From positions 128,001 through 192,000 of the forward strand of contig JAVJNR010000009.1 in NCBI GenBank assembly GCA_040217195.1: a stretch of 64,000 nt of DNA, read 5' to 3'. Shown here one piece after another: positions 2,571-43,745 of the stretch. Under the pieces are notes generated by a model. That model saw only the letters and a list, made by a program, of their open reading frames with translations, was not told where the DNA came from and did not search any database. The DNA is from Leptospiraceae bacterium (GTDB lineage: Bacteria > Spirochaetota > Leptospiria > Leptospirales > Leptonemataceae). Positions within the stretch are counted from its first letter, which is position 1; the number at the start of each line of letters is the position of its first letter. Both the position numbers and the translations under genes were made by a program.

Positions 2571-3497
2571 TCAAGCTCGATGAAGTCCAAAGTATTCGGC
2601 CAGCTGGTTGCGCGCATCTGAGTATCCAGCCTGGATCAACTGGTCCGCCTGCCTTGCAGTAAAATTCAGAATAGACTGGAAACCCAGCATACGATGAGGA
2701 GCTACAGTGGCAATTCTAGTATCGCCCAGAGTTAACGTTCTACGCACCAGGCTTTGAAGCATACCCTGCTGTTCTCGCAGCTTGAATTCCCAGGAAAGAT
2801 GGGCCATAAAGGATTCGTAAGAGCCAATCAAGGATTGCTCAAATACCCTTTCTGCAGCCTGCCTGCGACTGTTGGGAAGAGGCATACGGGCACCGCCCAC
2901 CGGACTCAGTAGTACTACAATTACTTCCCGTGCCCCTCGCTCCAGAGCTGGCAGAATGGGAGTGTTGGCCATGACTCCTCCATCCCAGTAAGGCTCACCA
3001 TCTATGTACTGCCAGGGAAATAAAATGGGTATGGCGCTGGATGCCATAACATGCTCAATGTCGATGACCTGATTGTTAAAAAATTTCAGCCGAGACTTCA
3101 GAATATTTACGGCTGTGATAATGATTTCTCGATCGCTCTTTCGTAAAGTTCTGAGATCCATTCGATCCAGGATCAGGTTCTTCAATGGCTCGGTATCCAT
3201 TAAAGGACTAAACCCTCGCCTGGTAAAGAAATGAACGATCTGCTTCCATAGCGATATCCGGTAGATGCGCCCTCGTTCGATGGTTTTCCAGAGATGAACC
3301 AGTTCCTGCAGATTAAGGCCGCAGCCAATGGCGCTAGCATTTACGGCCCCCACCGAAGTGCCACAGATTAGATCTGGATTCCAGCCAATTTCCTGCAGGA
3401 ATTTCCACACTCCCACCTGATAGGCTCCCCTGGCCCCCCCGCCAGAAAGGATTAATGCTCTGTTTCGTTTTTTCTGTTGAACCGGCGCTGTTGCCAT
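2571..3497 (-). CDS. patatin-like phospholipase
   Basis: LSGGGARG, GTSVG nucleophile and WDGG motifs. Confidence 0.92.
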   Translation of the reverse strand: MATAPVQQKKRNRALILSGGGARGAYQVGVWKFLQEIGWNPDLICGTSVGAVNASAIGCGLNLQELVHLWKTIERGRIYRISLWKQIVHFFTRRGFSPLMDTEPLKNLILDRMDLRTLRKSDREIIITAVNILKSRLKFFNNQVIDIEHVMASSAIPILFPWQYIDGEPYWDGGVMANTPILPALERGAREVIVVLLSPVGGARMPLPNSRRQAAERVFEQSLIGSYESFMAHLSWEFKLREQQGMLQSLVRRTLTLGDTRIATVAPHRMLGFQSILNFTARQADQLIQAGYSDARNQLAEYFGLHRA

Positions 3498-4112: not shown

Positions 4113-5570
4113 TTGCCAAATCCAGTAGAATTTGGGGGCAGATTGGAAACATCGGCAGAAAAAGGACCTCATCGAGAACAGGTCAGACTGGAACTAAACG
4201 TTCAAAATGATATGATTGCCACTGTACGGATACGTGGCAATCCAGATACCTCATTTGCCGCCGCACAAATCTATCAGGCCCTAAATGAACACCATGTCAA
4301 ATACGGTGTGGATCAGCAGGCCATTGAAAAGGTAGTCCATACGGTGCGAAGCAGCATCGAGCCAGTCCACATAGAAGAAACTGTAGCCCGGGGGCATCCA
4401 GCCACTCCTGGCATCGATGGCAGCTACCACAGGCTTGTCCGGGAAGTAAACAAGGTCAATATTCGAGAGGATGGCAAAGCGGATTTCCGCAACATCGAAA
4501 AATTCGTCACTGTGGACAAAGGCGACCCTGTAGTTGAAATAGTTCCTGCAAGCCCGGGCAAACCCGGGTATAATCTGTACGGTGATGAAATCCATCCAGA
4601 GCCGGCAAATCCCGCTCCCAGAAAGCCGGGAAAGAACATCAGTCAGATGCCAGGCTCCAATAAGTACATTGCCAGAATCCATGGAATCTATGTGGACGAT
4701 GGAAATACAATCGACATCAGCCCGGAGCTGGTGGTGGAAGGAAATGCTGGCCTGGAAACTGGAAACATTGAGTACGATGGTAACGTTCGCATTCTGGGGA
4801 ATATTGAACGTGGCACTCAGGTTCGCGTGGGCGGGAATCTCTATGTTGGAGGCACCATCGAATCCGGGCACTTAAAGGTTGCTGGAGATATTGAAGTGCA
4901 CCAGGGAATCAACACAGCCCGACAGGGAACCCTGCAATGCAGTGGAAGTATCCAGTCCACATATATTGAAAATTCAGTCATTATCGCAGATGGCAGTCTT
5001 TATGTTCAGAAATCCATCCTGGCCAGCTATGTAATAACCCATGAGAATATTGAACTGGCATCTGGAGGTTCAGTACTGGCCGGAAGCGAAGTAGTCTGCT
5101 TTGGCAATCTCTCCACCGATCATCTGGGTAGCAAGGCGGGAAGCGTCACTCGACTGTTTATGGGCACCCATTACAAGAATACCAGACAATGGGAACAATC
5201 CAGAAAAGAACTGGAAGGCCTGGAAGAACATATAAATAAATTAACCCATTCTCTGAAGCAGTATCGCGATAAAGTGCAGCGATATCGCGGCAATCCTCCG
5301 GTGACCCTGCAGGCTGAAATACGTCAGTCTTTTCGAGAATACAAGGAGGAACTGGCAAAACAGAAACGAGCCAGATCTATTTTTAACTACCTATCCCAGC
5401 ATAGAAACAATCCTGACTCCATTCGAATCACAGCAAGACAGATGATTCATCCAGGGGCAGAAATTCGCTACCACGGGCATACAGAAAAATACACCACGGA
5501 ATCTTCGGCCACCGTTCTGGAATACTTTCCCGGTGAACAGAAGCCAGAGATTAAAGCTTTCAAGAAATGA
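4113..5570 (+). CDS. FapA / DUF342 family protein
   Basis: VARGHPATPGIDG, ADFRNI, ETGNIEYDGNVRILGNI beta-helix repeats and C-terminal coiled coil. Confidence 0.88.
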   Translation: MPNPVEFGGRLETSAEKGPHREQVRLELNVQNDMIATVRIRGNPDTSFAAAQIYQALNEHHVKYGVDQQAIEKVVHTVRSSIEPVHIEETVARGHPATPGIDGSYHRLVREVNKVNIREDGKADFRNIEKFVTVDKGDPVVEIVPASPGKPGYNLYGDEIHPEPANPAPRKPGKNISQMPGSNKYIARIHGIYVDDGNTIDISPELVVEGNAGLETGNIEYDGNVRILGNIERGTQVRVGGNLYVGGTIESGHLKVAGDIEVHQGINTARQGTLQCSGSIQSTYIENSVIIADGSLYVQKSILASYVITHENIELASGGSVLAGSEVVCFGNLSTDHLGSKAGSVTRLFMGTHYKNTRQWEQSRKELEGLEEHINKLTHSLKQYRDKVQRYRGNPPVTLQAEIRQSFREYKEELAKQKRARSIFNYLSQHRNNPDSIRITARQMIHPGAEIRYHGHTEKYTTESSATVLEYFPGEQKPEIKAFKK

Positions 5571-22394: not shown

Positions 22395-23771
22395 ATGAAA
22401 GAACCAGTACTGGTAATTATCGGTAATGGCATAACCGGAATCACGGTTGCCAGAACTGTCCGCAAACAATTCAGGGATATCCGCATTCGTATTATATCGG
22501 ATGAGACGGACTACTTCTTTTCCCGTCCTGCCTTAATGTATATCTATATGGGTCATATGGAAGCTAAACATACTGAGCCCTATGAGCGGAATTTCTACGA
22601 TGAAAATCGTCTGGAGTTGATCCGTGGCCGTGTAGAATCCATGGATCCGGATTCCGGAAATCTGACCCTGACTGGCGGTCAGCAGGTACCCTTTGACTAC
22701 GTTGTGATGGCCACAGGCTCAGTGCCCAATCGCTTTGGCTGGCCCGGCCAGGATCTGGACGGTGTTCAAGGTCTCTATTCCATGCAAGACCTGGATAGCC
22801 TGGAATACTGGACAAAAGAAGGGATTCACAATGCAGTTATAGTAGGTGGAGGATTGATTGGTATAGAACTGGCGGAGATGCTACATACCCGAGGGATCCC
22901 GGCAACCTTTCTAGTGAGGGAAAGTCATTACTGGGGGAACATCCTGCCCGTTGAAGAATCCAATCTGGTCAAACAGCAAATCGATGCCCATCATGTTGGG
23001 TTAAAGCTAAATACAGAGCTGAAATCCATTGAATCCGATTCAAATGGCAGAGCCAGCGCCGTCATCACTTCGGATGGAGAGAGCATACCAGCCAACTTCG
23101 TAGGACTTACGGCTGGTGTTAGACCCAACATTTCTGTTTCGCATCCTTCTGTGGAAACGGCACGCGGCTATTTAATCGATTATTCATTTCAGACCAGCCA
23201 TAATAAGGTATTCGCGGCAGGCGATTGCGCCCAGTTTCGCACAAATGAAGGCGCCGGCCCGGTGGAGCAACTATGGTACACCGGGCGGATGCAAGGAGAA
23301 GCTCTGGGTTCCATTCTGGGATACAGGATTAAGGAGGAGCATTCCTTAACGTTGCGGGATGATATCCCGGTTGCGGATCAGGTATTTCCGGAAAACACCC
23401 CTTACGATCGGGGAATCTGGTTTAATTCAGCCAAGTTCTTTAACCTGGAATATCAGACCTACGGATATGTGCCTGCCAGACTTGATTCGGAGCAAACCTT
23501 TTACTGGCAGCATCCGAAAAAGAGTATCGCCTTTCGCATGGTATGGCAGGGAAATCCGGAATCTGGTCAGGTTACCGGATTCAATGTATTCGGATTGCGC
23601 TACAGACAGAATGTATGCCAGCAATGGATTGCGGATGGCCGAAGCCCCCGCCATGTAATCGATCATCTCAAGGAGGCCAATTTCGATCCAGAGTTCTTCG
23701 AAAAACCGGAGAAGCAAATACGAAAAGCCTTCAAAGAATTTGTCCGCAAGGCCCCGGCAGTCACGGGATGA
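22395..23771 (+). CDS. FAD/NAD(P)-dependent pyridine nucleotide oxidoreductase
   Basis: IIGNGITG, ATGS, VGGGLIGIE, FAAGDCA. Confidence 0.92.
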   Translation: MKEPVLVIIGNGITGITVARTVRKQFRDIRIRIISDETDYFFSRPALMYIYMGHMEAKHTEPYERNFYDENRLELIRGRVESMDPDSGNLTLTGGQQVPFDYVVMATGSVPNRFGWPGQDLDGVQGLYSMQDLDSLEYWTKEGIHNAVIVGGGLIGIELAEMLHTRGIPATFLVRESHYWGNILPVEESNLVKQQIDAHHVGLKLNTELKSIESDSNGRASAVITSDGESIPANFVGLTAGVRPNISVSHPSVETARGYLIDYSFQTSHNKVFAAGDCAQFRTNEGAGPVEQLWYTGRMQGEALGSILGYRIKEEHSLTLRDDIPVADQVFPENTPYDRGIWFNSAKFFNLEYQTYGYVPARLDSEQTFYWQHPKKSIAFRMVWQGNPESGQVTGFNVFGLRYRQNVCQQWIADGRSPRHVIDHLKEANFDPEFFEKPEKQIRKAFKEFVRKAPAVTG

Positions 23772-24291
23772 TCACAAGGTCCAAAGGACCGCAAGATTCA
23801 TTACGGGAGCACTGTTACACGAGATAGCAAGGCGAGCGAGATTCTGGCCGCTCCAAAGAGCGGGCCAGAAAGCGATCAGGACGATCGCCAGGTCCGAAGG
23901 ACCGCAAACAATTTCGTGGGAGGCGCAATGCACGAGGCATTGCGACGAGCACAACTAGATCGCAGAGTGCGTAGCACTCGCCGCGGGCAGGATGTCCGCA
24001 AGGCCCGAAGGGCCGCATAAACTTTCACGGGAGCACTGCTACATGAGGTAGCAAGGCGAGCGAGATTCTGGCCGCTCCAAAGAGCGGGCCAGAAAGCGAT
24101 CAGGACGATCGCCAGGTCCGAAGGACCGCAATAATTCTCGTGGGAGGCGCAATGCACGAGGCATTGCGACGAGCACAACTAGATCACAGAGTGCGTAGCA
24201 CTCTGCGCGGACAGGATGTCCGCAAGGCCTGAAGGGCCGCACAAATTTTCACGGGAAGCGCATTACAGGACGTAATGCGCTGAGCGTACCT
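23760..24291 (+). repeat. array 1 of ~112-bp multi-hairpin units (A/B alternation, 224-bp higher-order repeat)
   Basis: Unit starts 23803, 23916, 24027, 24140, 24251 (spacing 113/111); units 1 and 3, and 2 and 4, are near-identical; ends GAGCGTACCT. Confidence 0.95.
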
Positions 24292-24293
24292 AT

Positions 24294-25643
24294 ATGAACG
24301 ATTCAGTACCTTTTAAAATATTTCAACCCTATAACCTCATGGCCAGTTTGCTGATAGCAATCAGCCTGGCTGTTCCGGTGCTGGGCCTGGCCGGGTTGCC
24401 CGTAGCCCGGGGCGGGCTCTATCTGGTATTATTTCCGGGACTACTCTGTCTTGGCTTCTTTATGATGGCCGCTCAGCGTGCGCTTTCCCGACCGGCTGGA
24501 ATAGACAACCATGGCATTTACCATAGCAGCGTCACTGGCCGAGGGCTGGCAGGCATTTTGCTTGGAATTGTAATTACGGGTCTCTACGTTGTAATCTATT
24601 TTGGAGACCGAATCAGCCTGGGAGACAGCACTCTGCATAGTTTCTTTCAGGAAAGATTGTACAGCCATTTCGATGCCATTAGCCAGGCCTTACGCGGCCA
24701 ACCCGCCGATAATTGGTTCTTCTACAGTCTAATGTACACTCTAGCTGTATTCGTATTCGGAGTACGGATGATCCTGAAGCACAGGCATTCTCCCTACCAG
24801 ATCATTCGCACCATATCTGTAGTCATTGTTCAAACCGGATTTGGATTTCTCATCCCGTATCTCCTGGTGGCGCTTCAAAAGCCGGAGTTCTATTTCAGCT
24901 ACTTCTGGCCTTTGAAGCCCGAGTACCTCTATCCTGGTAAATGGCCGGACCTGGCATCGGGAGCACTCACCACTTTCTTTACCGGAGAAGCTGAACTGTT
25001 CACCTACTTTCTGGCCTTTGGCGCCTTTATGACCTTTGTGGCTACACCTGTGCTCACATATTTCTTTGGAAAGCGCTGGTATTGCTCCTGGGTTTGCGGA
25101 TGCGGAGGACTGGCAAACACTGCAGGTGATCCGTTTCGTCAGCTAAGCGACAAAAGCCTAAAAGCCTGGAAGATCGAACGATGGACCATCCACTCGGTTC
25201 TCGTGGCCATAGTCCTGATTACCGGAGTCCTCTGGCTGAATTCCATAACCGAAGGCAGGTTCTTGCCGGGATGGGGAGCTTCCCTTCAGCAAGCATATAC
25301 ATTCTACATTGGCTTAATATTCAGTGGAGTGGTTGGCGTGGGGTTCTATCCACTCCTGGGAACCAGGGTCTGGTGCCGATTCGGCTGTCCCATGGCTGCC
25401 ATCCTGGGAATCATTCAGAAGTTCTTTTCCAGATTTCGCATTACCACCAATGGAGGGCAATGTATCTCCTGTGGCAACTGCTCCACCTATTGCGAAATGG
25501 GCATCGATGTGCGATGGTATGCGCAGCGCGGCCAGAATGTGGTACGAGCATCCTGTGTGGGATGTGGCCTGTGTTCGGCAGTATGCCCGAGAGGTGTACT
25601 CAATCTGGAGAACGGAATTGTTACTGCAAGAGTGCCTTCCTGA
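24294..25643 (+). CDS. membrane 4Fe-4S protein (NapH/YccM-like)
   Basis: Multiple TM helices; RWYCSWVC, RVWCRFGCP, CISCGNCSTYC, CVGCGLCSAVCP. Confidence 0.9.
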   Translation: MNDSVPFKIFQPYNLMASLLIAISLAVPVLGLAGLPVARGGLYLVLFPGLLCLGFFMMAAQRALSRPAGIDNHGIYHSSVTGRGLAGILLGIVITGLYVVIYFGDRISLGDSTLHSFFQERLYSHFDAISQALRGQPADNWFFYSLMYTLAVFVFGVRMILKHRHSPYQIIRTISVVIVQTGFGFLIPYLLVALQKPEFYFSYFWPLKPEYLYPGKWPDLASGALTTFFTGEAELFTYFLAFGAFMTFVATPVLTYFFGKRWYCSWVCGCGGLANTAGDPFRQLSDKSLKAWKIERWTIHSVLVAIVLITGVLWLNSITEGRFLPGWGASLQQAYTFYIGLIFSGVVGVGFYPLLGTRVWCRFGCPMAAILGIIQKFFSRFRITTNGGQCISCGNCSTYCEMGIDVRWYAQRGQNVVRASCVGCGLCSAVCPRGVLNLENGIVTARVPS

Positions 25644-27466: not shown

Positions 27467-28621
27467 CTAGTCCACGACCAGGCGGGGAATTCCGGGCTCT
27501 ATGCGAGTGACGATTTCATAGTTGATCGTGCCTGCCAGATCGGCCAGTTCATCTGCTGTCACTGTCTCCGAACCATCCTGTCCGATCAAAGTGGCAACGT
27601 CACCCACTGCGCATCCAGGAATGGAGGTCACATCCACCATAATCATATTCATACATACCCGGCCCAGAAGTGGCGCCCGACGGCCACGAATCAAGACATG
27701 AGAACGATTGGAAAGGCTGCGATCATATCCTTCATAGTACCCAACCGGCAGCACTGCGATGGTGGTGGGCGCCGTGGTACGATGGGTGCAGCCATACCCC
27801 ACATCCACGCCTTCCCCCACTCGATTGATGTGCACGATACGAGTTCTCCAGGATAGAGCCGGTCGAAATTCTGGCATTTCTGCAAATATGGTACGAGCGC
27901 TAAGTCTGGTGGAACTGGAAGGCCAGAAACCATACAGTGAAATGCCCACTCGAATCCAGTCCTGACGGGATTCAGGCAAAATCAGGGCCGGTGCGCTGGC
28001 TGCACTGTGACAGATCAGTTCACCCGAAAAACCAGATTGCTGAAAAATGGCCCGGGCCCTTTCCATGGCAGCTGCAAATCTGGAGTATTGTAACCTGCCA
28101 TAGCCCTGGTCCATCACATCCTCGACGTTGGCAAAATGAGTCATTAATCCACGCCAGGGAAGTTCCGGGGTCTCAGACAGGTATTGAAATAGTTCATCCA
28201 GATAGGCATCGTGAGCGCCCAGGCGGCTCATTCCGGTATCGACCTTGATGTGGAATGGCAGATTCGGTCTACGAGCCTGGAGCGCCCGAACATCGTCCAC
28301 CGTGGAAAGCACGATATGGAACTGGTCTTCGGATTCAGGAATCTCTGAGTACTGTTGATCATCGTTACGACCCATGATCAACACAGGACCTGAGAATCCC
28401 AGATTTCGTAACTGAAGTCCTTCGAAAATGGCATTTACAGCCAATCCCCGCACATCTCCTCTCTCATAGAGAGGTAGCAAAATCTCAACCATCTGCTGTA
28501 GGCCGTGACCATAACCATTGGATTTGATAACAGCGTAGAAATCGCTATCGGGAGCGGCCGCTCTGTAGTTCAAGACGGACTGCTCAATGGAGCTTCTGCT
28601 GATCTCCAGCCAGGTATTCAT
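27467..28621 (-). CDS. alr: alanine racemase
   Basis: AVIKSNGYGHG, HIKVDTGMSRLG, VGYG, GRVCMN, TINYEI. Confidence 0.95.
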   Translation of the reverse strand: MNTWLEISRSSIEQSVLNYRAAAPDSDFYAVIKSNGYGHGLQQMVEILLPLYERGDVRGLAVNAIFEGLQLRNLGFSGPVLIMGRNDDQQYSEIPESEDQFHIVLSTVDDVRALQARRPNLPFHIKVDTGMSRLGAHDAYLDELFQYLSETPELPWRGLMTHFANVEDVMDQGYGRLQYSRFAAAMERARAIFQQSGFSGELICHSAASAPALILPESRQDWIRVGISLYGFWPSSSTRLSARTIFAEMPEFRPALSWRTRIVHINRVGEGVDVGYGCTHRTTAPTTIAVLPVGYYEGYDRSLSNRSHVLIRGRRAPLLGRVCMNMIMVDVTSIPGCAVGDVATLIGQDGSETVTADELADLAGTINYEIVTRIEPGIPRLVVD

Positions 28622-28697
28622 AGGGCCAGCCAAAAAAACAGACTTGCCCTGTATACCGGTTTGCTGAGCATGGAGGATTCTTATGGTATTTCACCTT

Positions 28698-29027
28698 TTT
28701 CTGGCCTCCCCGCGGGCCAGAAATCGATCAGGACGATCGCCAGGTCCGAAGGACCGCAATATTTGCTACGGGAGCAATGCACGAGGCATCGCGACGAGCA
28801 CAGCTGAAAAAGAACGCGGAGCGTTCTTGGTGATCAGGATGATCACAGGGTCCGAAGGACCGCAATATTTGCTACGGGAGCAATGCTGCACGAGGTAGTA
28901 TTGCGAGCGAGATTCTGGCCGCTCGGGAGAGCGGGCCAGAAAGCGATCAGGACGATCGCCAGGTCCGAAGGACCGCAAAATTTACTACGGGAGCAATGCG
29001 ACACGAGGTAGTATTGCGAGCGTACCT
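28698..29027 (+). repeat. array 2 of the same multi-hairpin repeat family
   Basis: Unit starts 28768, 28874, 28987; shares GCGATCAGGACGATCGCCAGGTCCGAAGGACCGCA with array 1; ends GAGCGTACCT. Confidence 0.95.
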
Positions 29028-29043
29028 CTAAAGGAGCCGGACA

Positions 29044-29178
29044 GTGAAGAAGCTGAAGACCAGACTATCCGTTCGAAAGCGACTGCAAAAGAAACGTGAA
29101 GCAAGAGCGCTGCGCAGCAAGGCCAAACAGGCCCATCGCCGAGGCACTGGATACAAAGACCTGGAAGATGCTGAGTGA
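29044..29178 (+). CDS. small basic protein, 44 aa
   Basis: AAGGAG SD 7 nt before GTG; MKKLKTRLSVRKRLQKKREARALRSKAKQAHRRGTGYKDLEDAE; stop overlaps next ATG (TGATG). Confidence 0.7.
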   Translation: MKKLKTRLSVRKRLQKKREARALRSKAKQAHRRGTGYKDLEDAE

Positions 29179-29807
29179 TGAAGCCTATTGCAGGCCTTCC
29201 ACTTCGCAATCATTTCATCCCCGCAGAACGAAGAGACTCCGCATTGCTGGTCATTATGCATGGCCTGGGCGATCGTATGGAGTCTTTTTTCGATTTCCCG
29301 GAAATGCTTCTGGGAAGCAAGATCTCCTATCTATTTCTAAACGCTCCTGATCCTTACGTGGTAGGCTGGAAGTGGTACGATCTGGATGGCCAGCAAGAGA
29401 CTGGCCTGAAAAACTCCAGGAGCCTATTAGACCAAACCCTCCAATACTTACGAAAGCACCAGGGCATTGCACCGGAGAGTATAGTGCTTTCTGGATTCAG
29501 CCAGGGCGCTGTTGTCAGCCTTTACACAGGGATTCGGAGTGAATTGCCACTTGCAGGTATTGGAGCTCTGTCAGGTTATCTGTTCGGCGGCGTGGACGAT
29601 GCCACAGAGGCAAGCAAGGAAACGCCCATCTTCATGACCCATGGATTATACGATGAAGTGCTACCCTATGAGCGATCCGAAGGTCATGGCCAGTTGCTTT
29701 CGGAGGCCGGTTACAAACTGGACTGGAGGGAGTATCCCATGGGGCATCAGATTTGCCAGGAAGAAATGCAGGATTTCGCACACTGGTTGAGCGCTATTGC
29801 TGGCTGA
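29178..29807 (+). CDS. phospholipase/carboxylesterase (alpha/beta hydrolase)
   Basis: MHGLGD, GFSQG, HGLYDEV, YPMGH. Confidence 0.92.
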   Translation: MKPIAGLPLRNHFIPAERRDSALLVIMHGLGDRMESFFDFPEMLLGSKISYLFLNAPDPYVVGWKWYDLDGQQETGLKNSRSLLDQTLQYLRKHQGIAPESIVLSGFSQGAVVSLYTGIRSELPLAGIGALSGYLFGGVDDATEASKETPIFMTHGLYDEVLPYERSEGHGQLLSEAGYKLDWREYPMGHQICQEEMQDFAHWLSAIAG

Positions 29808-42700: not shown

Positions 42701-43606
42701 ATGCAGACGTTGGAAGATATCACCAGGGTAGAAATGATACGGGTCCCTCACTTTGAGCTGGATGCATTCCAGAAAAGTGTCCTGGATAATCTATATCTGG
42801 AGTTTTTTCTGGAGCAATGTAGAGTACTTGTTACACCGGACCTGAACTATATGACTACAGGCCCTACATCTGCAGGGGAACTGGAACGACTGGAAGAGCT
42901 GCTGGCCTCGGAAAATGAAACTCTGGATAAACTGAAATGGTATCTACTGTACGATCTCAGCCTGTATTCAGCTCTTCTGGAAACGAATTCCTATTATATA
43001 TCCTCCAATGGCCATGTACTGATATCCAGATTCGTTCCTGTAGAAGGAGAGGATCAGCGCTTCGAAGTAAAACTGTACACCATTGCAGCCAATGACCTGC
43101 CAGAAAACTACAAAGACAAGCTATACCTGGGTCGAGACTTCTTCTCGTTAAAGACTCTCCGAAGGGAGCACTTTGGATTAAAGCTAATTCGCGGCTCAAT
43201 TATCGGGCAATTCTATAAGATGCGCGAAAGAGTCAACCAGTACACTCTTCAGGAATACCACAGCGAACTGGACTCCGAGTACATGAAAGAAATCGAAGAG
43301 ATTTCAGGAGAGTTTGCAGAAGCCAGCGAAAGCATCCTTTCTTCTTTTCCGGTGGACATCTCCACCGATAGCCTGGAAAAACCAGCGCTCATCGAGGCAA
43401 ACCAGAAGTTTCGTGATCTAAAGCATATTCTAATTGAGATGGAAGAATCTTTACGAGAAATGGAAAGTCGACTCTTTGAGCTGGATCAAACCCGGGCTGT
43501 AAGATACGTCACCAAATTCAGAAAAGATATCACAAACTACACGAACTACTTCATCATCAAAGTAAATGGTCGCATCTCCGACGCTGTAAACGGAATCCAC
43601 ATGTAG
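42701..43606 (+). CDS. hypothetical protein
   Basis: ~300 aa open frame, acidic and helical C-terminus; no family recognised. Confidence 0.8.
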   Translation: MQTLEDITRVEMIRVPHFELDAFQKSVLDNLYLEFFLEQCRVLVTPDLNYMTTGPTSAGELERLEELLASENETLDKLKWYLLYDLSLYSALLETNSYYISSNGHVLISRFVPVEGEDQRFEVKLYTIAANDLPENYKDKLYLGRDFFSLKTLRREHFGLKLIRGSIIGQFYKMRERVNQYTLQEYHSELDSEYMKEIEEISGEFAEASESILSSFPVDISTDSLEKPALIEANQKFRDLKHILIEMEESLREMESRLFELDQTRAVRYVTKFRKDITNYTNYFIIKVNGRISDAVNGIHM

Positions 43607-43745
43607 GTACGCTCGAAAAGCTATCTACTGTAGCTTCTCGAGCGTAAAGCAATAGGCGCAGCTGAGCGCCGACCAGGTCTTAGAAACGATTAATCTACCC
43701 GGCGAGCCAACCCTGGCTCACCTGGTAGGGCCCGGGCTGTAGCTT
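43605..43745 (-). repeat. palindromic intergenic segment, possible degenerate member of the hairpin repeat family
   Basis: Minus strand GAGAAGCTAC-AGTAG-ATAGCTTTTC-GAGCGTACCT has the same geometry and terminal decamer as the array ends. Confidence 0.45.

Follow-up and report, generated by a model that had tools for sequence, protein, structure and literature searches.

A structured RNA module arranged in tandem arrays in one genus of uncultured marine spirochaetes

We analysed a stretch of 64,000 nucleotides (nt) from a Leptospiraceae bacterium of the Leptonemataceae (contig JAVJNR010000009.1, positions 128,001 to 192,000 of the forward strand), which is referred to as the window throughout. 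Between a gene for an FAD oxidoreductase and a gene for a 4Fe-4S membrane protein, the window carries an array of tandem repeats (array 1, 23760-24292). The repeating unit is an undescribed, genus-specific structured RNA module of uncultured marine spirochaetes that is absent from Rfam, and its structure is conserved more than its sequence. The original prediction, made from the letters alone, had suggested an undescribed structured repeat family, which the covariation of the stems and the lack of an Rfam match bear out; the dispersed, mRNA-embedded placement that it proposed agrees with 10 loci in the genome of the window, most of them before co-oriented start codons. We tentatively favour the reading that the arrays represent a once-mobile, cis-acting RNA leader module that would serve as a multivalent protein-binding platform, with CsrA as the leading candidate for the bound protein.

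Architecture and covariation of the module

Tandem Repeats Finder placed array 1 at 23803-24256, with a period of 224, 2.0 copies, 94% matches and a score of 815. Such a period, repeated twice, corresponds to four ~112-nt units that alternate between two subtypes. The covariance model R1 (window positions of its hits are genome coordinates minus 128000) matched five head-to-tail copies of an ~86-nt module between 23760 and 24292, again of two alternating subtypes and with a variable hairpin between copies. Both methods therefore confirm that the array predicted at 23760..24291 is real. It had been described as four complete units with partial ends; the four ~112-nt units stand, but R1 finds five copies, the first of which is degenerate.

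The natural boundaries of the module were set from diverged single and multiple copies elsewhere in the genome. Judged by the single-copy versions, a natural unit begins with hairpin 3, includes hairpin 1 and ends with the GAGCG box, which corrects the unit as originally delimited. Hairpin 3 consists of a 6-bp stem and a 5-nt loop (e.g. GCGAUC-AGGAY-GAUCGC) and is followed by two bases, AA or CA. In hairpin 4, a 5-bp stem ends in a C-G pair that closes a GNA triloop; GCA follows, and an A/U-rich linker of 9-13 nt leads to box 1, (C/U)ACGGGAG. Hairpin 1 has a variable stem of 7-10 bp with a conserved UAC/GUA top and a 5-nt loop, and is followed by box 2, CGAGCGUACCU. The two boxes pair as ACG/CGU and thereby enclose a symmetric GGA/GAG internal loop stacked under hairpin 1. 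At both loop hairpins, the top reads (A/U)(A/U)C-A(G/C)GAN-G(A/U)(A/U). The last module of an array ends with CGAGCGUACCU(C/A)UA, mostly 1-25 nt 5' of the start codon.

All five copies in array 1 lie on the plus strand. In the degenerate copy 1 (23760..23844; 63.8 bits with R1), hairpin 3 overlaps the TGA (23769-23771) of the oxidoreductase gene. Copy 2, of subtype B (23872..23957; 92.6 bits, also supported by alignment and fold), is composed of a GCGATC-AGGAC-GATCGC hairpin, a GGTCC-GAA-GGACC hairpin with GCA, the linker, a GTGGGAG box, hairpin 1 with an ACGAG loop and a CGAGCAC box. The subtype A copy 3 (23983..24068; 87.7 bits, also aligned) leads from a GCGGGC-AGGAT-GTCCGC hairpin and a GGCCC-GAA-GGGCC hairpin over an ACGGGAG box to hairpin 1 with an ATGAG loop and a CGAGCGAG box. 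Copy 4 is again of subtype B (24096..24181; 95.0 bits), and the terminal copy (24207..24292; 94.5 bits) has AGCGCATTAC-AGGAC-GTAATGCGCT as hairpin 1. The terminal GAGCGTACCTA box stops one base 5' of the ATG at 24294, with no Shine-Dalgarno (SD) sequence between. Sequence and fold define the first spacer as the variable hairpin 2 (TTCTGGCCGCTC / GAGCGGGCCAGAA; 23845..23871, +), and equivalent spacers separate the other copies at 23958-23982, 24069-24095 and 24182-24206. A coding repeat was ruled out by unit lengths of 96-113 nt, which are not consistently multiples of three, by stops in all frames of array 1 and by the helical covariation.

The stems differ between unit types and still pair, as the original prediction had stated. 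Among 22 copies from the genome of the window, 85.8% of cells pair and changes on both sides occur in 18 of 24 pairs; none of 500 shuffles reached the observed value, and slid controls were at most 40.4% paired. Searching loci of six sister genomes with R1 yielded 101 copies, 99 of them distinct. In this alignment, which was fitted to R1 and hence by a procedure that favours pairing, 93.0% of cells pair compared to 65.1% in shuffles (0/500 shuffles reach the observed value) and at most 40.4% in slid controls, compensatory changes are found in 23 of 24 pairs, and the covariation score is 0.618 versus 0.162 in shuffles. When column pairs are ranked by mutual information, predicted base pairs occupy each of the top 16 places. 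Between orthologous terminal hairpins, the stems differ in sequence but remain paired. On the sense strand of the 101 copies, the stems contain 61 G:T versus 26 A:C combinations, an excess that favours an RNA read from the strand shown. The RNA fold of 23872-24296 is predicted at -195.8 kcal/mol, compared to -143.3 +/- 5.9 for shuffles (z = -8.9; 0/100 shuffles as good).

The unpaired letters are conserved as well. Among the 101 copies, the loop of hairpin 3 begins with AGGA in 43 and ACGA in 31 cases and that of hairpin 1 in 62 and 18 cases, respectively. Loop position 2 is nearly always G or C (hairpin 3: 51 G, 32 C, 1 A, 1 T), and the loop is 5 nt long in 84/101 copies of hairpin 3 and 78/101 of hairpin 1. 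The triloop reads C-GNA-G in 85/101 copies and C-ANA-G in 10, and the internal loop is GGA/GAG in 63/101. Tertiary covariation of loop position 2 was not seen in the two loops (26 GG, 18 CG, 9 GC, 4 CC), and no non-helical column pair stands out. In array 1, the heptamer CAGGAYG is found exactly at the five predicted positions (23877, 23988, 24101, 24212 and 24266), every time in a hairpin loop, whereas the ACGAG and ATGAG loops of hairpin 1 contain no GGA. The heptamer is common in the window (44 seen versus 19.3 expected). A GGNCC-GAA-GGNCC-GCA hairpin with at most three mismatches occurs 9 times in the window compared to 0.39 expected, and 8 of these 9 lie within its two arrays.

A further module type was observed inside arrays of other loci (L148, ~4400-4560; L150, ~1440-1560). 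It reads AACAGGAUGACG..ACGGAGGUGCUAAUGYCGGCGGAG and includes a GCAC-ACGGAG-GUGC hairpin with a canonical ANGGAN hexaloop.

Distribution, placement and turnover of the arrays

R1 gave 31 hits at 10 loci in the genome of the window and 2-44 hits in each of the 6 other genomes of the genus, so that the scan with a covariance model, as the original prediction had proposed, matched 7/7 genomes of the genus. Outside the genus, scanning 35 genomes that represent 20 other genera of the family gave a single 30-bit hit; there were no hits in 24 genomes of the sister family and no convincing match in 149 other Leptospirales. A loose pattern for hairpins 3 and 4, run on 156 Leptospirales genomes, matched all seven genomes of the genus and otherwise only two single stretches that do not pair; the reversed control gave 0 matches. 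An exact-pattern scan for the triloop hairpin in a public genome collection returned at least 119 stretches, mostly by chance. Among the 80 of these loci that we examined with R1, only three (L046, L072 and L087; 53.8-86.9 bits) scored as true modules; they come from Leptonemataceae or Spirochaetaceae metagenome-assembled genomes, and the remaining matches do not exceed 29 bits. No RNA run was found to contain the locus, and two metatranscriptomes from the sample of one DNA run that does contain it gave no match; as DNA contigs also break within the array, these negatives have no bearing on its expression. The 30-bit hit belongs to another genus (G010; L015 1501-1585, minus strand). It lies upstream of a lipoprotein-like open reading frame (ORF) and consists of a GCGGAC-AGGAA-GUCCGC hairpin, a GGCC-GCAA-GGCC hairpin and GCA; this element may be a distant relative of the module.

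Rfam gave no match at the gathering threshold in the whole window. At E values up to 10, array 1 yielded only chance-level matches (Acido-Lenti-1, 14.8 bits; Bacillaceae-1, 14.5 bits; CsrB, 9.4 bits), and at E up to 0.1 nothing was found on 18 related loci. The literature on Leptonemataceae, and on CsrA together with Leptospira and GGA, contained no description of the repeat that we could find.

The arrays are not randomly oriented. In the genome of the window, 7 of 10 loci end 1-46 nt 5' of a co-oriented start codon. Among 41 arrays of the sister genomes (an inverted unit and a split of the same array were not counted), 26 abut a co-oriented start (within about 60 nt), 11 do not, and 4 lie at contig ends or beside tiny ORFs; the 11 non-abutting arrays represent three recurrent locus types plus one other locus. 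Almost all copies (100/101) share the orientation of their array. Several gene families recur downstream: the 44-aa basic ORF with a carboxylesterase (array in 6 genomes), an arginyl-transferase-like ATE_N/ATE_C transferase and a GDSL lipase (5 genomes each), the 4Fe-4S membrane protein and an SNF transporter (4 each), a DinB-like DinB_2 protein (3) and citrate synthase (2). Single cases are the beta subunit of a 2-oxoacid:ferredoxin oxidoreductase, a CCG/Fe-S protein, a MoxR ATPase and a lipoprotein. These downstream genes, about a dozen, are unrelated and do not share a single functional theme.

In four gene families, no SD sequence lies between the module and the ATG, which follows 1-15 nt after the module (46 nt for citrate synthase). 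In array 1 and in the leaders of the transferase, the DinB-like protein and citrate synthase, all without an SD sequence, the nearest GGA loop is ~25-30 nt upstream of the ATG. The other families have an AAGGAG-like SD sequence 0-15 nt after the CUCUA tail. Some arrays lie between cistrons, namely those of the oxidoreductase/4Fe-4S pair in the genome of the window and of korA/korB in sister genome G004. The genes flanking array 1 encode a pyridine nucleotide-disulphide (FAD) oxidoreductase upstream (22395..23771, +; Pfam Pyr_redox_2, E 9.6e-43), whose stop lies inside the first, degenerate hairpin, and a membrane protein with 4Fe-4S dicluster domains downstream (24294..25643, +; Pfam Fer4_21 and Fer4_5). 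Orthologues of the latter in three sister genomes (loci L147, L163 and L177) have an array at the start codon, too.

The window contains a second array 4.4 kb downstream of array 1. Array 2 (28724..29028, +) has three module copies (28724-28806, 28830-28915 and 28943-29028; 68.8, 87.2 and 93.2 bits), and Tandem Repeats Finder placed it at 28712-29022 with a period of 113 and 2.8 copies. It forms the 5' leader of a small ORF and is divergent from a 388-aa gene at 27467-28633. The ORF encodes 44 Arg/Lys-rich residues (MKKLKTRLSVRKRLQKK...; 29044..29178, +) without a Pfam match; it has a GTG start, its AAGGAG SD sequence lies 3 nt after array 2, and a carboxylesterase gene follows (29175-29807; Pfam Abhydrolase_2). 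Of the 36 other genomes of the family, 32 have conserved a single copy of the 44-aa ORF, which at the loci examined follows a divergently transcribed gene. In other genera its leader is short (an intergenic region of ~100 nt) and free of modules, which indicates that the array is an insertion specific to this genus. The 44-aa protein as a dedicated, genus-specific partner of the module was rejected on the same two grounds. A decayed module remnant was observed at ~43590-43665 of the window (minus strand). It retains a hairpin-1-like stem and a GAGCGTACC box, has no co-oriented gene after it, and matches the position of full arrays in sister genomes G004, G006 and G002 ('locus k').

The arrays vary between genomes. 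Copy number at orthologous loci ranges from 1 to 6, and the arrays are mosaics of several module types. The sites at korA-korB and at the CCG/Fe-S and MoxR genes are filled in G004 or G002 and empty in the genome of the window, although the proteins are 94-98% identical; before the lipoprotein gene, a decayed fragment remains in the genome of the window. These filled/empty differences point to a mobile or expanding repeat. When the filled korA-korB site of G004 was compared by eye to the empty site, the array was seen to start and end with a GAGCGTACCTC box, as a direct and not an inverted repeat; this single comparison by eye revealed no clear terminal inverted repeats or target duplication. 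A Y1 (REP-type, RAYT) transposase (PF01797) was not found in the 93.7%-complete genome of the window. At locus L148 (G004:C9:107000-113000; array at 1186-1745), the final ~60 nt of the acyl-CoA dehydrogenase coding sequence recur three times between module copies, which shows that the segment duplicated in tandem as this array grew was longer than the module itself. Some loops carry, behind their AGGA, an inserted sub-module of ~57 nt (CAACUGNAAGGCGRCAGU with a small hairpin). The same ~57-nt sub-module (CAACTGGAAGGCGGCAGT plus a small hairpin) was also observed in frame in an unbroken 571-aa ORF with a Hint domain (C1:1819-3532, minus strand, around 3190-3250), an insertion reminiscent of the Rickettsia palindromic elements.

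Covariation, some strand evidence, retention at orthologous genes and placement at start codons together argue that the structure is selected at the RNA level and acts in cis. Restriction to one genus, empty sites, mosaicism and changes in copy number, in turn, argue that the module arose as a spreading or expanding repeat and still behaves as one.

CsrA as a candidate partner and alternative explanations

The conserved loops and boxes would be explained most simply by a trans-acting binder, and the letters of the loops suggest CsrA. The repeat of CsrB is C-AGGAN-G. A csrA gene (C2:66856-67008; PF02599, 89 bits) is present in the genome of the window beside fliW, directly after fliW and flgL, and the closest solved relatives of the encoded protein are the FliW-type CsrA proteins 5dmb and 1t3o. 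The AGGAN pentaloops with their (A/U)C...G(A/U) closing pairs appear to fit the CsrA consensus less one base, whereas the ACGA loops do not. Four flaB genes were observed in the same genome (C4:139941, C3:203289, C1:74059 and C3:204396; loci L200-L203). At least two flaB leaders have a 4-5-bp hairpin with a C-A(C/A)GGAG-G hexaloop over the SD sequence, the classical form of a CsrA operator; these ANGGAN hexaloops differ from the pentaloops of the module. Some arrays hold GCAC-ACGGAG-GTGC hairpins as well. The CsrA of Leptospira binds a site of the flaB-leader type in an electrophoretic mobility shift assay, and according to the same paper, Leptospira has fliW and lacks csrB and csrC (PMC8668096).

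The arrays resemble the CsrB/RsmB sponges and CsrA-repressed leaders, such as the flagellin leaders of FliW-type organisms, in their many C-AGGAN-G hairpins, in having several sites near the ribosome-binding site and in the presence of csrA in the genome; a leader that both responds to and titrates CsrA is described for flaA of C. jejuni (PMC4894983). As in CsrB and RsmB, numerous GGA motifs lie in hairpin loops (AGGA in 43/101 and 62/101). Unlike these RNAs, the module adds the GNA triloop hairpin, the GGA/GAG internal loop, the CGAGCGUACC box and frequent ACGA loops, and the arrays score only 9.4 and 8.1 bits with the CsrB model (RF00018), compared to its gathering score of 71. A free-standing CsrB-like small RNA gene is not supported for either array of the window: array 1 is bounded by a stop codon and the following ATG, and array 2 occupies a 5' leader, flanked by a divergent gene and by an SD sequence with its GTG start. 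TwoAYGGAY RNA (RF01731), whose function is unknown, likewise has paired hairpins with GGA loops and is listed as a probable RNA, not a cis-regulatory one (PMC2864571). It differs by AYGGAY hexaloops in place of A(G/C)GAN pentaloops, and the module described here is larger, tandem and gene-proximal; with the TwoAYGGAY model, neither the array (E up to 10) nor 18 related loci (E up to 0.1) gave a hit. REP/BIME and ERIC elements of enterobacteria also are short palindromic units that cluster in intergenic or intercistronic regions and can influence mRNA stability or attenuation. In contrast to REP/BIME, our arrays come without a detectable Y1 transposase, are head-to-tail and not alternately inverted, and consist of a four-hairpin module of ~86-112 nt instead of a single palindrome. 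By the tests run, the arrays do not belong to the CsrB, TwoAYGGAY or REP/BIME families. Of the outcomes that the original prediction had named as speaking against it, none that can be computed (absence of csrA, random orientation, a match to a known REP/BIME or Rfam family) was observed.

For the leader-module reading, we propose the following mechanism. The GNA-triloop hairpin and the long, ACG/CGU-closed hairpin would hold the two loop hairpins in a fixed arrangement, and an array would thereby offer a multivalent platform for an RNA-binding protein, with the organism's own FliW-partnered CsrA as the leading candidate. Occupancy beside or over the ribosome-binding region would set the translation of the downstream gene, and the copies, being so numerous, would in addition tie up a good part of the CsrA pool. 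About 10-17 loci would have acquired the module as it spread in the ancestor of the genus, and it would still expand, contract, be gained or be lost through tandem duplication and deletion. In this proposal we infer the sense transcription of the arrays within mRNA leaders and intercistronic regions, the existence and identity of the protein partner, and the direction of any effect on translation.

Several observations weigh against a CsrA-binding, sense-strand leader. The ACGA loops (31/101 and 18/101) have no GGA and look like a specific alternative rather than a decayed GGA site, and terminal copies of hairpin 1 are only slightly richer in AGGA (31/42) than internal ones (31/59). The CGAGCGUACC box, the GNA-triloop hairpin and the GGA/GAG internal loop are not known from CsrA targets. 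Whereas csrA is widespread, the family occurs in a single genus. Among the 22 copies of the genome of the window, degenerate ones included, A:C combinations (19) outnumber G:T (12). In the same genome, one locus lies in the 3' region of an acyl-CoA dehydrogenase gene, and 2 of 10 (C4:613087 and C1:7124) lie antisense between minus-strand genes. At L018 (G003:C288; 1609-1693, plus strand), one complete copy is inverted in a head-to-tail array upstream of the transferase gene. Finally, the module-free leaders of the 44-aa ORF count here, as do the empty orthologous sites, from which it follows that the element is dispensable at the korA-korB, CCG/Fe-S and MoxR genes.

Many of the same observations would be expected if the arrays were a structured intergenic repeat, selfish or neutral, of the BOX, ERIC, BIME or MITE kind, either non-autonomously mobile or driven by recombination and tolerated mainly in one orientation near gene starts. 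Boxes and loops would then serve propagation; no trans-acting regulator would be dedicated to the module, and any influence on mRNA stability or on translation would be a by-product. We regard this explanation as possible, though we lean against it. It accounts well for the genus restriction, the filled and empty sites beside nearly identical proteins, copy numbers from 1 to 6, mosaic arrays, the sub-module in loops and in the Hint-domain ORF, the duplication together with the 3' end of the acyl-CoA dehydrogenase gene in G004, decayed remnants, and the lack of a functional theme downstream. The BOX elements of Streptococcus pneumoniae (boxA-boxB(n)-boxC) offer a precedent: they are modular, structured, lineage-specific intergenic repeats with a variable number of internal boxB modules, often co-transcribed with neighbouring genes and reported to affect expression (PMC3049150). 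What such a repeat would not lead one to expect are stems that are nearly fully randomised between loci and yet 93% paired, with G:T exceeding A:C on the sense strand, a pattern foreign to recent copies of a single master element. Moreover, most sister genomes have retained the array at six or more gene families, and most arrays abut start codons in sense, whereas BOX, RUP and insertion sequence elements are described as enriched between convergent genes (PMC3049150); the stems covary, and there is no sequence relation to BOX. The Y1 transposase and clear terminal repeats or target duplications, the latter sought by eye at korA-korB, were not seen either.

The module could also act at the RNA level without CsrA. 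Its SD-like loops (AGGAG, GAGG) and GGGAG box might be standby or decoy sites for the 30S subunit, or its stacked hairpins and A/U-rich linkers might set half-life or processing of the mRNA and hence the relative expression of neighbouring cistrons. A 4-nt SD core is present in nearly every loop and in the GGGAG box; four gene families have a start codon near the module and no separate SD sequence, so that initiation has to deal with the module; and there are arrays between cistrons. ERIC, Correia and BIME repeats are reported to alter transcript cleavage or attenuation (PMC3049150). We still consider this unlikely, since pairing with the anti-SD sequence does not explain the strict C-G-closed pentaloop, the UAC/GUA top stem, the GNA triloop or the purine internal loop; ACGAC loops lack the SD core, and a stable hairpin one base before an ATG would be expected to hinder and not help 30S binding. 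Tandem riboswitch aptamers, or an element acting as DNA (an operator, or a recombination site read as single strand), would fit the well conserved internal loop and boxes inside a covarying scaffold, and the hairpins would form in single-stranded DNA as well. Both seem very improbable to us: up to six tandem copies, confined to one genus, before unrelated genes and with empty orthologous sites are unlike any known riboswitch class, no Rfam riboswitch matched, and the one-strand G:T excess together with the head-to-tail orientation argues against a symmetric operator.

Implications

Even if the element is selfish, it represents a clean, strongly covarying new RNA fold that is absent from Rfam, with an unusual architecture and a sub-module carried in frame in a coding gene. 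A bolder version of the CsrA-bound leader module, which we put forward as a doubtful but attractive suggestion, is that the arrays might provide a FliW-type CsrA system with an RNA arm, the first of its kind. Platforms embedded in mRNAs would then couple about a dozen metabolic and transport genes, among them those for citrate synthase, 2-oxoacid:ferredoxin oxidoreductase (in one sister genome), Fe-S oxidoreductases, GDSL lipase and SNF transporter, to the flagellar CsrA-FliW checkpoint, and would buffer free CsrA in the manner of enterobacterial CsrB. In this case, the GNA hairpin together with the purine internal loop might be a scaffold, or a second protein site, that spaces the two loops for one CsrA dimer. 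No RNA antagonists are known to us from CsrA-FliW systems. If CsrA or another regulator indeed binds the module, it would follow that the spread of a ready-made leader before unrelated genes can quickly produce a global post-transcriptional regulon, the regulatory dosage would be tunable through copy number, and an RNA component would be added to CsrA-FliW systems.

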